Assembly (NCBI GenBank): GCA_964458205.1
Contig: CAYWFJ010000003.1
Coordinates: forward strand, 1 to 42,175
Direction of reading: 5' to 3'
From: Candidatus Micrarchaeota archaeon
Lineage (GTDB): Archaea > Micrarchaeota > Micrarchaeia > Anstonellales > Anstonellaceae
Length of the DNA: 42,175 nt
The position numbers and the translations under genes were made by a program. The notes under the pieces are model-generated. The model searched no databases and was not told the DNA's origin. It saw nothing but the letters and a program-made list of their open reading frames with translations. Shown here one piece after another: positions 21,826 through 31,937 of the stretch (within the stretch, counting starts at the first letter, position 1; each line of letters begins with the position of its first letter).

Positions 21826-22398
21826 TCACTCTGCTAGCTTTTCTTCCAGGAAAGAAGCCATTGAGTTGAGCATGGGCAGGATATAGAAAGGAAGCACTAT
21901 TCCTATTATCGCCCCAGTCATCATGCGGATAGAATTGGTGCTTTCGCGGAAGCCCAAAAGCTGCGTGCCGCCGTCGATTGCGACCGGAACCGCAGCTGCG
22001 ATGAGCAGCCATGCGGGCGGCCAGTCTTCCGAGTCGATTTTGCGGATGAATGGGAGAATGATGAGCCCGAAAAGCATTGCAAGGTAGATTGCGACGTCCC
22101 GGGAGCAGACAGGGAATTTGTAGCCTGCCTTGCCATCCTTCACAACGTAATTTGCCCTTGAGTGGCTGATCTCTTCGCCTTGCGGGCGGCAGTCGCCGAT
22201 TGAATGCCCGCCTGATGCAGACTGGAAAAGGCATAGCGAGCGGGAAGTGAGCTGGTGGCAGGTGGGCGCGAATGCCAGATAGAGCGTGCCTGACACAGGG
22301 TCGCCTTGCGAGGCGAGATAAGGAACCGAAAAGATTGCGAGGTTGAAGAGGAAGAGCGCCGAGAGGAAAAGGATGAAGGGGAGCTTTCCTGCCGCCAT
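21826..22398 (-). CDS. DUF2085-like membrane protein
   Basis: Shows PTCHQLTSRSLCLF....FPVCSRDVAIYLAMLFG...AIDGGTQLLG. This is the CHQ / C-x-R-(C/D) / IDG pattern I associate with DUF2085. Confidence 0.6.
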   Translation of the reverse strand: MAAGKLPFILFLSALFLFNLAIFSVPYLASQGDPVSGTLYLAFAPTCHQLTSRSLCLFQSASGGHSIGDCRPQGEEISHSRANYVVKDGKAGYKFPVCSRDVAIYLAMLFGLIILPFIRKIDSEDWPPAWLLIAAAVPVAIDGGTQLLGFRESTNSIRMMTGAIIGIVLPFYILPMLNSMASFLEEKLAE

Positions 22399-22416
22399 GG
22401 CTTTCGCTTTTTGTGC

Positions 22417-22430
22417 CTATATTTTTAAAG
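22417..22430. promoter_or_regulatory. TATA box upstream of the tRNA 5' fragment / LAGLIDADG ORF (possibly bidirectional with 21826..22398)
   Basis: CTATATTTTTAAAG. Its 3' edge is about 26 nt upstream of G22456, the first base of the tRNA-like 5' segment. Confidence 0.5.
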
Positions 22431-22455
22431 GGGAAGCGCTCCAAGGAACCCACGC

Positions 22456-22484
22456 GGGCTCGTAGCTCAGCTTGGATAGAGCGA
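22456..22484 (+). other. Isolated tRNA 5' part (acceptor 5' strand plus complete D-arm, positions 1-27), duplicate of the 5' part of the downstream tRNA-Arg
   Basis: GGGCTCG-TA-GCTC-AGCTTGGATA-GAGC-GA. A 21-nt stretch (AGCTCAGCTTGGATAGAGCGA) is identical to 23505-23525. The acceptor strand can pair with CGGGCCC at 23721-23727 (one G-U) and perfectly with CGAGCCC at 31659-31665 and 31753-31759 (minus strand). Confidence 0.6.
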
Positions 22485-23475
22485 TTTTATGGAAAGAATC
22501 GTTTTCATCCCTGGAAAACAGCGGGAGATGGTACTTGGTTTCATATCGCATACGGGCAAAAGCCAAGTAAAGGCAGCGAAATTACTTGGTGTTCCGAGGC
22601 GAACACTAAGAAATTGGATAAACGAAACGCGAACTATTCCCGCCGGTATTTTTGGAAAAATGATTCACGCATGCCCTGAGTTGAAGATTTTTTCAAGCAG
22701 CATTCGCAAGGTTCTTGATGCCAATTGGGGCAGAACGAAAGGCGGAAAGAACTGTTATGCTGTCCTTCGAAAAAAATATGGTGAAGACGAGCTTATGCGA
22801 AGAAAACGGTCGGGTGGCGCGGCTTCGATAAAACTGAGGCTGGAGAAAATAACGCGCAAACTGCCCCCACCTGATGACGCTCGCGTCCTAGAACTGCTTG
22901 GCGCACTAATCGGAGACGGATGGATAGGGATTAGCGGCGGAAGAAAACAGGTATGCTTCTGCGGGAATCTGCGCCAGCAAGCGTATGCAAAACATTTGCG
23001 AAAACTCCTGTGTCGGGCTTTCGGTGTCCGCGGTTATTTCAAGTTACGAGAAAAAAATACTGTATTCTATATTATCGTGAACTCTGGCCCTATTTTTGAT
23101 TTTTTTAAGAATGAATTCGATTTTCCAGTAGGCGCCAAGAAGAAATTCAATACGCTTCTGTTGCCATCCGAAACTGAAGAAGGGCTAACAGTTATACGTG
23201 GAATTTTTGATACGGACGGCGGAATATATATGGACAATGCGCCAGGTTATGCTCGTCCGTACCCGGTAGTGGACATAACTTCGCACAACCCAGAATTACT
23301 CGGATGGATATCTAAAACCCTGACTAAAAAGGGTTTTAAGGTGATTAGCCTTAAGTATAGCATCCGCCTCAAGACCATTAGTCAGGTGGAGCGCTGGTTT
23401 AACGAAGTTAAGCCATCGAATAAAGTCCACGTAAATAAGTGGAACCTCTGGAAGAGCAAATACATGGGCCCGTAA
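22485..23475 (+). mobile_element. LAGLIDADG homing-endonuclease cassette embedded in or next to a tRNA gene; visibly AT-richer than its flanks
   Basis: Bracketed by the duplicated tRNA 5' part. Base composition drops (for example 23041-23160 is A/T-rich). Contains a double-motif LAGLIDADG ORF. Confidence 0.6.
22489..23475 (+). CDS. LAGLIDADG-family homing endonuclease with N-terminal HTH
   Basis: Two dodecapeptide motifs, LELLGALIGDGW and VIRGIFDTDGGIY. N-terminal HTH KAAKLLGVPRRTLRNWI. The last codons (ATG GGC CCG TAA) overlap the tRNA-Arg acceptor GGGCCCGTA. Confidence 0.85.
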   Translation: MERIVFIPGKQREMVLGFISHTGKSQVKAAKLLGVPRRTLRNWINETRTIPAGIFGKMIHACPELKIFSSSIRKVLDANWGRTKGGKNCYAVLRKKYGEDELMRRKRSGGAASIKLRLEKITRKLPPPDDARVLELLGALIGDGWIGISGGRKQVCFCGNLRQQAYAKHLRKLLCRAFGVRGYFKLREKNTVFYIIVNSGPIFDFFKNEFDFPVGAKKKFNTLLLPSETEEGLTVIRGIFDTDGGIYMDNAPGYARPYPVVDITSHNPELLGWISKTLTKKGFKVISLKYSIRLKTISQVERWFNEVKPSNKVHVNKWNLWKSKYMGP

Positions 23476-23728
23476 GCGAAAACAGATTGTTTGTTTTCCC
23501 GGGAAGCTCAGCTTGGATAGAGCGACACTCTCCTACCCTAGGGGGCAGATGGTCATCCGTCGATCCCCCTAAGGGTTCACCCCCAATCGGCAACATTGTT
23601 GGGGGATGAACCTGGAAGAGCATTGCGCTTTTTCCGCGAATGTGCGGAGAAAGGTGAAGGTCGTGAGTTCAAACGCCGTTGTCTGGCAACGTGTTGCCAG
23701 CCCTTGGCTGACAATCTCACCGGGCCCG
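23466..23728 (+). tRNA. tRNA-Arg(CCU) with three putative introns (31 nt at 9/10, 116 nt at 37/38, 41 nt in the T-loop at 59/60); mature length 75 nt
   Basis: Hand fold: GGGCCCG TA [23475-23505] GCTC AGCTTGGATA GAGC G ACACT CUCCUA [23536-23651] A GGTGA AGGTC GTGAG TTCAAA [23674-23714] T CTCAC CGGGCCC G. The acceptor is 7/7 Watson-Crick. The anticodon stem has 4 pairs plus an A-A at 27:43. A T-run follows at 23734-23739. The alternative 5' exon at 22456-22484 is unresolved. Confidence 0.6.
23536..23590 (+). repeat. 55-nt intron module shared with the tRNA-Lys T-loop intron
   Basis: CCCTAGGGGGCAGATG..GATCCCCCT..GGTTCACCCCCAATCGG. About 47/55 identical to the minus strand of 31782-31836. Confidence 0.8.
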
Positions 23729-23780
23729 TATCATTTTTTCATCCGCGCTGAAGCGGATGGTTTTTTATATAACAGTGAGA

Positions 23781-24629
23781 ATGAGTGCCATGGTTTCGAA
23801 ATTAGCCGCGTTGTTCGAGGAAGCCGTAAGGAACAACTGCCAGGGCGAGATAGCCATACTCTTTTCAGGCGGCATAGACAGCACGGCGATTGCGACCATA
23901 GCGAAGAAATACACCACGCCGCTTCTCATTACCGCAGGAGTGGCGGGCAGCCAGGATTTGGAGGCTGCAAAGAAGATTGCGGCAGAGCTTGGCCTCCCGC
24001 ACAAGGAAGTCGTTTTCTCGGAAGAGGAAATCGTAAAGATTTACAAGAAATGCTACAAGATACGGAAAGGGGATCTCCTCAAAGTCGAGCTCATGGTGCC
24101 GGTCTTCTCCTGCTGCCGGGAGGCTGCGCGCTCTGGCAAGTGGAGGATACTCTCTGGCTCTGGCGCGGAGGAGCTTTTCATCGGCTATGACAGGTATTTT
24201 CGGCACAAGGGCGCGAAGCTGCAAAGGCTCCTTGAGAGGGAAATAGTCGAGCTTCCGTCAGGGGACTGCGAGGCGCAGGAGCTGGTGGCTAAGAATTTCG
24301 GCATGCGCGCGGCATTCCCGTTCCTTTACCCCCCGTTCGTGAATTCTGTCCTCTCCACGCCTCTTTCAGAACGGCTGGGCACGCGCGAGAGCAAGAAGCC
24401 CCTCCTGCGCAAAATCTGCGCGGAGCTTGGCGTCCCGCAGGATGCGATTGACCGGAAGAAAAAGGCGATGCAGTACGGGAGCGGCGTGCACAAGATACTT
24501 CTTTCAAGAATAAAGGAAGTAGAGGAGGAGCTCCAGATAAAGGAGGAGCTAAAGCAGAGGAAGCGCGACCAGATGGCGCAGGTGCGGGAAGCCCGCTATG
24601 GCCCGTCAGGTTACAGGCCGCGCGCTTAG
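23781..24629 (+). CDS. Asparagine-synthase-domain / PP-loop ATP pyrophosphatase protein (no glutaminase domain)
   Basis: AILFSGGIDSTAIA (SGGxDS PP-loop) and GSGAEELFIGYDRY (AsnB-like motif). The start is ATG 23781 or 23790. ORF-track start 23757 lies too close to the tRNA end. Confidence 0.7.
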   Translation: MSAMVSKLAALFEEAVRNNCQGEIAILFSGGIDSTAIATIAKKYTTPLLITAGVAGSQDLEAAKKIAAELGLPHKEVVFSEEEIVKIYKKCYKIRKGDLLKVELMVPVFSCCREAARSGKWRILSGSGAEELFIGYDRYFRHKGAKLQRLLEREIVELPSGDCEAQELVAKNFGMRAAFPFLYPPFVNSVLSTPLSERLGTRESKKPLLRKICAELGVPQDAIDRKKKAMQYGSGVHKILLSRIKEVEEELQIKEELKQRKRDQMAQVREARYGPSGYRPRA

Positions 24630-31751: not shown

Positions 31752-31937
31752 CGGGCTCGGTGGGATTTTCACAAGGCGCACCCGATTGGGGGTGAACCAT
31801 CAGGGGGATCGTCTGCAGTGCATCTGCCCCCTAGGGTTTGAACCCACGGCTTTCTGGTTACCTCAGTTGCCAATTATCCGCAATCGGATAAGAGCCATAA
31901 AAGCCAGACACTCTAGGCCAAGCTGAGTTACGAGCCC
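31752..31937 (-). tRNA. tRNA-Lys(UUU) with two introns (39 nt at 37/38, 71 nt in the T-loop at 59/60); mature length 76 nt
   Basis: Hand fold of the minus strand: GGGCTCG TA ACTC AGCTTGGCCTA GAGT G TCTGG CUUUUA [39-nt intron with TTATCCG-ATTG-CGGATAA hairpin] (N38) CCAGA AAGCC GTGGG TTCAAA [71 nt] T CCCAC CGAGCCC G. All stems are Watson-Crick. 186 nt total = 76 + 39 + 71. Confidence 0.75.
31782..31836 (-). repeat. 55-nt intron module (copy inside the tRNA-Lys T-loop intron)
   Basis: Minus strand reads CCCTAGGGGGCAGATG CACTGCAGAC GATCCCCCT GAT GGTTCACCCCCAATCGG. Compare 23536-23590. Confidence 0.8.

Follow-up and report, generated by a model that had tools for sequence, protein, structure and literature searches.

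The archaeal LAGLIDADG homing endonucleases I-Tsp061I and I-DmoI are the endonucleases of crenarchaeal rRNA introns. The stretch analysed here (the window, 42,175 nt) comes from a Candidatus Micrarchaeota archaeon (assembly GCA_964458205.1, contig CAYWFJ010000003.1, positions 1–42,175, forward). Its tRNA-Arg(CCU) gene overlaps an open reading frame (ORF) for a protein related to these enzymes, and we regard this arrangement as probably a homing-endonuclease cassette lodged in the tRNA gene of this Micrarchaeota-type (DPANN) archaeon.

SSV-type and other archaeal integrated elements, like bacterial genomic islands, insert into a tRNA gene and restore the interrupted gene, and it is a long-standing idea that introns shield tRNA genes from mobile elements. 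Sugahara, Fujishima, Randau, Chan and Lowe have reportedly described non-canonical bulge-helix-bulge (BHB) introns and split or permuted tRNA genes in Thermoproteales, Nanoarchaeum and ARMAN; we know of no protein-coding mobility gene tied to the non-canonical BHB introns of these groups. In phages, the original 2008 work on T4 SegB is said to have found this nuclease sitting among tRNA genes and dragging neighbouring tRNA sequence along.

SegB, summarized in PMC13096335, is a GIY-YIG endonuclease whose gene is free-standing and lies within a cluster of tRNA genes. Collaborative (trans) homing, which pairs a free-standing endonuclease with an ORF-less intron, is outlined for cyanophage psbA and phage group I introns in PMC3984707 (citing Zeng, Bonocora and Shub 2009). 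In the account given by a survey of archaeal group I introns, 39 of 39 were in rRNA genes (PMC6125680).

Structure of the locus

The features of the locus, with the evidence for each, were as follows.

22418–22429 (+), TATA-like box TATATTTTTAAA, putative resident tRNA promoter; read in the sequence, with its role suggested by archaeal promoter geometry
22456–22484 (+), copy A GGGCTCGTAGCTCAGCTTGGATAGAGCGA, 5' part (positions 1–28) of the resident tRNA-Arg(CCU), with U5 and no intron; 29 of 29 nt as in the ORF-less allele L089
22485–23525 (+), 1041 nt insertion relative to the ORF-less allele (TTTT, ORF, copy B exon 1, 31 nt intron and D-arm copy); L089 alignment and repeat spacing
22489–23475 (+), ORF of 328 codons, helix-turn-helix (HTH) plus double-motif LAGLIDADG homing endonuclease; ORF list, Pfam, homologues and structure model
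23466–23474 (+), copy B GGGCCCGTA, probable exon 1 of the working tRNA-Arg(CCU), positions 1–9, with C5; sequence, spliced-tRNA call and relatives
23475–23505 (+), intron 1, 31 nt, site 9/10, hBHBh' fold; BHB check, folding and nine loci
23506–23535 (+), exon 2, positions 10–37, with the D-arm, the 5' strand of the anticodon stem and anticodon CCT; ARAGORN and spliced sequence
23536–23651 (+), intron 2, 116 nt, canonical site 37/38; BHB check and folding, 111 of 116 nt as in L089
23652–23673 (+), exon 3, positions 38–59; ARAGORN and spliced sequence
23674–23714 (+), intron 3, 41 nt, T-loop site 59/60, near-canonical hBHBh' fold; folding and the intron-less alleles L086 and L001
23715–23728 (+), exon 4, positions 60–73, with the 3' acceptor strand CGGGCCC at 23721–23727 and discriminator G23728
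23740–23766 (+), terminator-like hairpin and T-run 3' of the tRNA; also 3' of the ORF-less tRNA in L089

The original prediction, made from the sequence alone, placed a LAGLIDADG ORF within a tRNA-Arg(CCU) locus, between two copies of the tRNA 5' part, and this description was correct. The TATA box that it placed about 26 nt upstream of G22456 was found, ending 27 nt before that base, and the intact tRNA 5' part beginning there corresponds to positions 1–28 in our numbering. In the ORF-less alleles L089 and L090 the uninterrupted tRNA has this box ahead of it at an equal distance, and a box TTTAAATA lies upstream of the relic in L001 and L004. The box of the window today lies 5' of both copy A and the endonuclease ORF. 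Between copy A and the start codon (ATG at 22489) stands only TTTT, in agreement with the claimed ORF start five nucleotides on, and the ORF was AT-richer than its flanks as stated (GC 0.40–0.51 versus 0.52–0.60).

At its 3' end the ORF closes with the codons ATG GGC CCG TAA, which overlap copy B from 23466 as predicted; the stop codon TAA (23473–23475) consists of tRNA positions 8–9 and the first intron base. The claimed 31 nt interruption before the D-arm was exact, as was the 21 nt identity. This repeat (22464–22484 and 23505–23525) is 100 % identical with a spacing of 1041 nt, and because of it the limits of the insertion can be shifted by 20 nt, to 22465–23505. With the 21 nt D-arm probe there were just two matches in the window, and a double match occurred in 0 of 100 shuffles; the repeat is beyond chance expectation. 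An assembly artefact was dismissed because the same architecture occurs in independent assemblies (L001, L004/L084 and L085), and the locus is real. A candidate internal tRNA promoter, GTAAATAAG, was noted in the 3' end of the ORF (23431–23439), and this motif is not kept in L001. The hairpin at 23740–23759 was considered as a relic of a tRNA 3' part and rejected, being resident sequence that is present in L089 too.

Alleles of the locus in related genomes

The gene order DUF2085 protein (minus strand), ORF, tRNA and AsnB-like protein was common to the window, L001, L004 (= L084), L085 and the P0005 contig. ORF-less alleles were retrieved using the AsnB-like neighbour as a handle; a metagenome scan with a single protein gave just four loci, the deletion allele L086 among them. 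The alleles L089 and L090 have the same synteny, with AsnB-like proteins 89 % and 87 % identical to that of the window. In both, the promoter is directly followed by an uninterrupted GGGCTCGTAGCTCAGCTTGGATAGAGCGACACTC..., carrying U5 and lacking the 9/10 intron, with introns 2 and 3 in place.

When 22485–23525 was removed, the window was colinear with L089 (copy A 29/29, exons 100 %, intron 2 111/116 and intron 3 38/41). The comparison with an intron-less allele that had been proposed as a check therefore came out clearly: at the sequence level the window reads as an L089-type gene plus 1041 nt. Since the ORF-less alleles equal the window without these 1041 nt and have copy A as their 5' end, copy A is the resident 5' exon, with its promoter. 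The cassette displaced both upstream, and the ORF, copy B with its C5 and the 31 nt 9/10 intron arrived as one unit. At the syntenic locus the 9/10 intron was present in all four ORF-bearing alleles (window, L001, L004 and L085) and in both alleles with a remnant or footprint (L086 with an ORF remnant, L098 with the ATG only), and it was absent from the four other ORF-less alleles (L089, L090 and the further pair L096 and L097).

The fate of the two 5' copies differed among the relatives. Copy A was degenerate but recognisable in L001, L004 and L085, where the acceptor and D stems are no longer possible; in L001 it matched at 18 of 29 positions by eye and its pairing with the 3' strand is lost. 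L086, the closest relative (AsnB 98 % identical), has lost copy A and approximately codons 1–301 of the ORF and has kept the promoter, copy B and intron 1; its promoter is now about 100 nt from copy B. L098 has neither ORF nor relic but still carries the 9/10 intron as well as the ATG ahead of copy B, while L005 and L006 carry an intact intron-less relic followed by a hairpin and T-run. Copy B is kept at the ORF end in L001, L004–L008, L085 and L086, and it is the sole remaining 5' exon in L086 and L098.

Older insertions have a decayed copy A, and the near-identical L086 has lost it but still has copy B; copy B therefore appears to be the working exon wherever this is decidable, and most likely in the window likewise. 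Copy A is now a relic and the probable 5' untranslated region of the endonuclease mRNA. The locus thus displays a presence/absence polymorphism at one homologous site, accompanied by decay and loss, as in a homing cycle. The original prediction had offered three hypotheses and chosen none of them. The ORF-less alleles, the decayed relics in L001, L004 and L085 and the deletion in L086 support the one in which a homing cassette duplicated its target and left over a 5' fragment; of the other two, both weighed below, a giant intron is equivalent to it in sequence and a split-tRNA piece has no support.

Other features of these alleles were recorded separately. At 1093–1101 of L001 the relic has changed from GGATAGAGCGA to GGAGGGAGTAG, and a GGAGG Shine–Dalgarno-like motif arises close 5' of the ORF ATG. 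The 41 nt T-loop intron is absent in L086 (1770–1800) and present in the window (23663–23720), L089 and L090, which points to a precise and very recent loss in L086. In L098 (1675–1945; 9/10 intron without ORF) the 3' end TCTCACCGGGCCCG occurs twice, 41 nt apart, and in L097 (1680–1950; neither ORF nor 9/10 intron) the 3' end is duplicated about 90 nt apart; these duplicated ends are possible footprints of lost cassettes. L091 and L099 have another synteny, with a tRNA-Lys upstream of the AsnB-like gene, and are uninformative for this locus.

The tRNA gene and its introns

Joining 23466–23474, 23506–23535, 23652–23673 and 23715–23728 gave a 75 nt sequence which ARAGORN called as tRNA-Arg(CCT), with a single A·A mismatch at 27–43. 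This bears out the predicted foldable tRNA-Arg(CCU) with two more inserts, once three BHB introns are removed. The call was unchanged when the acceptor strand of copy A was swapped in, with a U5·G68 wobble, so that both 5' copies can pair with the 3' acceptor strand as had been claimed. In the unspliced sequence no tRNA was found by ARAGORN at several intron settings or by Rfam (gathering score; E up to 10), and a permissive ARAGORN setting gave one spurious tRNA-Glu call. The gene is therefore seen solely after splicing by hand, and the ARAGORN check suggested beforehand returned nothing from the raw sequence and the expected tRNA from the spliced one.

The hBHBh' fold consists of an outer helix (h), a 3 nt bulge, a 4 bp central helix (H), a second 3 nt bulge and an inner helix (h'). 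A BHB search at the candidate junctions, also suggested beforehand, showed intron 1 to be canonical, with h GGG/CTC, H CCCG/CGGG, bulges TAA and AAG and an h' hairpin at 23476–23499; its removal joins GTA to GCTC. The 9/10 intron was present in nine loci and all nine gave the canonical hBHBh' by constrained folding sequence by sequence, which was used instead of the MAFFT alignment, where the inner helices of L007 and L008 were misplaced. Compensatory changes were found in h' across the nine introns (GAAAACA/TGTTTTC, GAAAGC/GCTTTC, GCCAAA/TTTGGC and TGCC/GGCA), and the central helix covaries in L085 (CTCG/CGAG). This conservation of pairing argues strongly that the 31 nt insert is a genuine BHB intron, which we infer to be excised by the tRNA splicing endonuclease.

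In intron 2 the anticodon stem is joined by H CTCC/GGAG and bulges TAC and AAA, with no inner helix. It is composite, containing a nested BHB (23581–23609) and a module of about 58 nt in common with a tRNA-Lys gene. The nested hBHBh' has outer, central and inner helices of 3, 4 and 6 bp, respectively; the region is absent from the shorter intron 2 of L001 and may be an intron within an intron.

Intron 3 has the T-stem, with h GTGAG/CTCAC, H TTCA/TGAC (3 bp plus U·C), bulges AAC and AAT and h' GCCG/TGGC. Its boundaries were set by relatives without that intron (L086 and L001), and L089 and L090 also have it. When 22440–23740 was scanned strictly for BHB motifs, all against all, 5201 candidates emerged; having no discrimination alone, the scan was kept for checking given junctions only. 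The scan missed intron 3 because of the U·C mismatch in H, and folding together with the intron-less alleles settled the limits. A group I ribozyme core was likewise sought, with no Rfam match in the window at the gathering score and none to E = 10 in 22300–23900; the locus is no group I intron.

The endonuclease

In Pfam searches the protein matched LAGLIDADG_3 just over the cut-off, with additional weak N-terminal HTH matches. The homologues (n=47) were, every one, from DPANN-type archaea. Both motif aspartates, D143 in LIGDGW and D243 in FDTDGG, were invariant together with their surroundings in an alignment of 30 homologues reaching down to 21 % identity. A profile search of solved structures matched I-Tsp061I and I-DmoI. 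The AlphaFold model (pLDDT 93.2) contains two tandem alpha-beta-beta-alpha-beta-beta-alpha domains, and its best Foldseek match was 2dch (I-Tsp061I; E 5.7e-8, target-normalised TM-score 0.71), with I-DmoI at about 0.7; WhiA and the bI3 maturase were also among the fold matches. The protein thus models as an I-DmoI/I-Tsp061I-like double-motif LAGLIDADG nuclease and is plausibly active. Non-synonymous to synonymous rate ratios (dN/dS) among orthologues were 0.05–0.16 (0.11 at dS 1.25 and 0.16 at dS 0.31, the remaining pairs being saturated at synonymous sites), a range that indicates purifying selection on the ORF.

Proposed mechanism and alternative explanations

In the proposed cycle, the resident tRNA promoter would drive a single transcript comprising copy A as a 33 nt leader, the endonuclease and then the tRNA precursor. 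The mature tRNA would be built from copy B, with an RNase P cut at 23466 and removal of the three BHB introns by the splicing endonuclease; since this cut would take off the stop codon of the mRNA, translation and processing would compete. The nuclease would cut ORF-less tRNA-Arg genes and the cassette would spread by being copied during break repair, with copy A and the D-arm/anticodon exon as homology arms. The right-hand crossover would fall inside the tRNA, so that introns 2 and 3 would be of the resident type and C5 and the 9/10 intron of the donor type. Loss would occur by deletion, and the 21 nt repeats would permit precise reversion. The recognition site is probably interrupted by the 9/10 intron in copy B and by the junction at 28/29 in copy A, and this is the weakest point of the proposal.

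Several observations weigh against a mobile cassette of this kind. The cassette tRNAs of Nanoarchaeota, Pacearchaeota and Woesearchaeota are intron-free and positions 1–28 of copy A are intact in the window, which in both cases leaves self-immunity unexplained. Copy A is also pristine in this genome and could still be used here as an exon. The ORF-less alleles may be precise revertants and not never-invaded genes, and the comparative sequences are all metagenome assemblies. Finally, purifying selection and long co-residence with one tRNA would also be expected of a domesticated protein.

Such domestication, in which the LAGLIDADG protein would be immobile and serve the host as a DNA- or RNA-binding factor for the tRNA locus (a WhiA-like regulator or a maturase-like helper), is quite unlikely. 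The low dN/dS, the HTH domain, the WhiA and bI3 maturase fold matches and the persistence of the ORF beside the same tRNA down to 21–30 % protein identity are all compatible with it. As far as is known, however, WhiA lacks the corresponding catalytic residues, and both motif aspartates are invariant in the present family. Domestication also fits poorly with the presence/absence and deletion polymorphism among close relatives and with the relics of a disrupted resident gene that flank the ORF. The giant intron, likened to the endonuclease-bearing rRNA introns of Crenarchaeota, is equivalent to the cassette at the sequence level: positions 1–9 of copy A would be used and 22465–23505 (equivalent to 22485–23525) excised as a 1041 nt ORF-bearing 9/10 intron. 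Removal of this segment recreates the ancestral gene exactly and the spliced product is a valid tRNA-Arg; copy A is intact behind the resident promoter and can form H (CTCG/CGGG, one G·U) and h (GGG/CTC) with the 3' splice site of intron 1. This pairing is automatic because copy A is a duplicate, the inner helix h' is absent, and copy B, 31 nt off, forms the full hBHBh' at −12.8 kcal/mol and rivals it for the same strand. The ORF lies between used splice sites only if copy A is the used exon; if copy B is used, the ORF precedes exon 1. The tRNA persists in relatives with a broken (L001, L004 and L085) or missing (L086 and L098) copy A; an ORF inside a spliced intron is thus not found where copy A is broken or absent, and a hairpin and T-run come after the relic in L005 and L006. 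A giant intron could accordingly operate in this genome only, would be inoperable in the relatives and is unnecessary, making it improbable.

The third hypothesis of the original prediction, in which copy A would be transcribed on its own and then joined, as a 5' piece, to the exons downstream, like the split tRNAs of Nanoarchaeum or Caldivirga, is very improbable. A promoter stands ahead of copy A and copy A pairs with the 3' acceptor strand, but downstream, in cis and on the strand of copy A, lies a complete gene that has a 5' exon of its own, and in relatives copy A has decayed or been deleted. Neither a complementary leader nor a separate 3'-half gene was seen on reading this locus, so that the separate units with pairing leaders and no complete gene in cis that define split or permuted tRNA genes are not what this locus presents. 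An integrase-type element, with the 21 nt repeat as an att duplication, or a mis-assembly of two alleles would account for the direct repeats of tRNA sequence flanking the insert, as at att sites. No tyrosine or serine recombinase was present among the ORFs listed for the insert, which is filled by the 328 amino acid LAGLIDADG ORF, and the same architecture recurs in independent assemblies and dozens of genomes; this explanation has next to no probability.

Related endonucleases beside tRNA genes

When one genome per species was scanned, relatives of the endonuclease proved to be encoded in 300 stretches. The best 80 of these 300 belonged to Micrarchaeota, Woesearchaeota, Pacearchaeota, Nanoarchaeota and Iainarchaeota, with a few contigs labelled otherwise, and 82 best loci were examined. 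A tRNA called by ARAGORN abutted the ORF in 65 of the 82 loci and an intron-containing tRNA was recognised by eye in 12 more; in all but about five, the ORF had a tRNA-Arg(CCU) or tRNA-Thr beside it. The commonest layouts were a tRNA-Arg(CCT) or tRNA-Thr(GGT) over the 3' end of the ORF on the same strand and a tRNA-Thr overlapping on the opposite strand; a tRNA-Thr(CGT) just upstream of the ORF was found in five loci. The C-termini of the proteins are translated tRNA (..YMGP, ..GPVAQLG and ..VAQSG).

The association of this nuclease with tRNA genes thus turns out to be common in DPANN genomes. A literature search found no publication linking LAGLIDADG genes to tRNA loci in DPANN archaea, an absence that is no proof of novelty, and the association in many of these archaea is apparently unreported. 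The earlier expectation that ORF-bearing insertions are unusual in tRNA genes agrees with the searchable literature and fails for these genomes. A scan of viral contigs gave weak generic LAGLIDADG matches only, with no sign of a virus-borne cassette.

Relics of tRNA genes accompany many of these ORFs. A 5'-part relic upstream of the ORF was significant in 11 of 44 loci, and in Nanoarchaeota and Pacearchaeota the order is 5' relic, TATA box and ORF. In about 5 of 37 loci (L018, L022, L024, L028 and L065) a 3'-part relic lies beyond the intact tRNA; the two relics of L028 form pairs between themselves (GCTTCCG/CGGGAGC) and not with the cassette's own tRNA. In these lineages the cassette comprises a whole tRNA and lies within a destroyed resident gene; in the window the 5' part alone was transferred. 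It is possible, if somewhat doubtful, that DPANN archaea harbour an unrecognised class of 'tRNA-replacing' homing cassettes, in which the nuclease would destroy the resident tRNA-Arg(CCU) or tRNA-Thr gene and bring a whole or partial copy of it, the Micrarchaeota copy being armoured by a BHB intron at the recognition site and this intron outlasting the nuclease (L086 and L098).

Variants of these layouts were seen in individual lineages. With tRNA-Thr(CGT), L054, L060, L064 and L067 have a 5' relic, TATA box, complete tRNA, ORF and 3' relic; this arrangement begins roughly 200 nt before the ORF and reaches 110 nt beyond it. In the Iainarchaeota loci (L045, L047 and others) ORF and tRNA-Thr are convergent, the tRNA being antisense, and a copy of the 3' part of this tRNA stands upstream of the ORF. 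Homologues of 212–241 amino acids without the HTH (L009–L014 and L040) precede a tRNA-Arg(CCT) that lacks the 9/10 intron; in 7 of 7 loci it is interrupted instead by an intron after GGATAGA, at about position 23/24. The place of the intron therefore follows nuclease clade. In L058 and L063 the last ~40 nt of the ORF contain conserved F-S-N codons, TTTTCAAAT(A)A, about 25–30 nt upstream of the first tRNA base, and one may speculate that these codons might also serve the tRNA as its TATA box. ARAGORN labelled the intron-containing tRNA-Arg(CCT) as tRNA-Gly(CCC) in L005 and tRNA-Gly(TCC) in L010, each with an intron, and automatic annotation would therefore mislabel the tRNA-Arg there.

Comparison with known systems

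By profile and fold, the closest described proteins are I-DmoI and I-Tsp061I, which, like the window ORF, are archaeal monomers with two motifs and both motif aspartates, linked to a BHB intron in a stable-RNA gene. They differ in residing in rRNA genes and not at a tRNA gene, and in lacking the extra N-terminal HTH. Unlike these classical intron-encoded enzymes, the window ORF is not contained in the small intron but is located upstream of the exon that it overlaps, and its insertion duplicates part of the host gene, whereas insertions of the I-DmoI/I-Tsp061I type are excised as RNA.

In functional terms the arrangement most resembles collaborative homing. In both, the nuclease gene lies beside and not within a small ORF-less intron of the adjacent gene, and intron and ORF co-occur; at the window locus this adjoining position and co-occurrence were observed, and ORF-less alleles without a cassette footprint are also without the intron. 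The two differ in that the window has a protein-spliced BHB intron on an archaeal chromosome and cyanophage psbA a group I ribozyme in a phage. Unlike psbA collaborative homing, the window cassette also brings a replacement exon, with a stub of the former one left behind.

SegB is similar as a free-standing homing endonuclease among tRNA genes, but belongs to another nuclease family and to a phage genome, with no tRNA overlap, duplication of a tRNA part or intron. With tRNA-targeting islands the element has in common the insertion in a tRNA gene, the replacement of the displaced part and the flanking direct repeats of tRNA sequence; it differs in being only 1 kb long and in having a LAGLIDADG nuclease instead of an integrase. 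Since this nuclease is its mobility gene, the element would move through break repair instead of site-specific recombination. The tRNAs of Thermoproteales, Nanoarchaeum and ARMAN are alike in having several BHB introns in one tRNA, with the non-canonical sites 9/10 and 59/60, in sharing an intron module between tRNA genes and in having tRNA fragments beside the gene; in the window, a nuclease ORF is physically linked to one such non-canonical intron.

With this locus, the targets known for archaeal LAGLIDADG nucleases would come to include tRNA genes. The locus also bears on two old open questions, the origin of archaeal tRNA introns at odd positions and how tRNA genes became fragmented. If DPANN archaea do harbour 'tRNA-replacing' cassettes, nuclease-driven homing would be a source of both non-canonical tRNA introns and tRNA gene fragments in archaea. 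With a mobility gene linked to a non-canonical BHB intron and alleles from before, during and after invasion, the idea that introns protect tRNA genes becomes directly testable. Standard tRNA finders miss such genes: ARAGORN found zero in the 42 kb window despite at least two tRNAs.

A second tRNA and a shared intron module

A second multi-intron tRNA, missed by both ARAGORN and Rfam, was located at 31937–31752 on the minus strand of the window. After removal of a 39 nt 37/38 intron and a 70 nt T-loop intron, ARAGORN called it as tRNA-Lys(UUU). The ~58 nt module CCCTAGGGGGCAGATG...CCCCCAATCGG occurs in its T-loop intron (31838–31769, minus strand) and in the 5' part of the tRNA-Arg intron 2 (23536–23593, plus strand), and it is missing from intron 2 of L001. 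This distribution suggests that the intron module moves between tRNA genes and positions.

The 3' end of the tRNA-Lys, ACCGAGCCCGCTTTCA, occurs twice, about 90 nt apart (31761–31746 and 31668–31653, minus strand), and resembles in this the duplicated tRNA-Arg 3' ends of L097, L098 and L004. The doubled end could be the relic of another insertion or an exon-mimicking intron.

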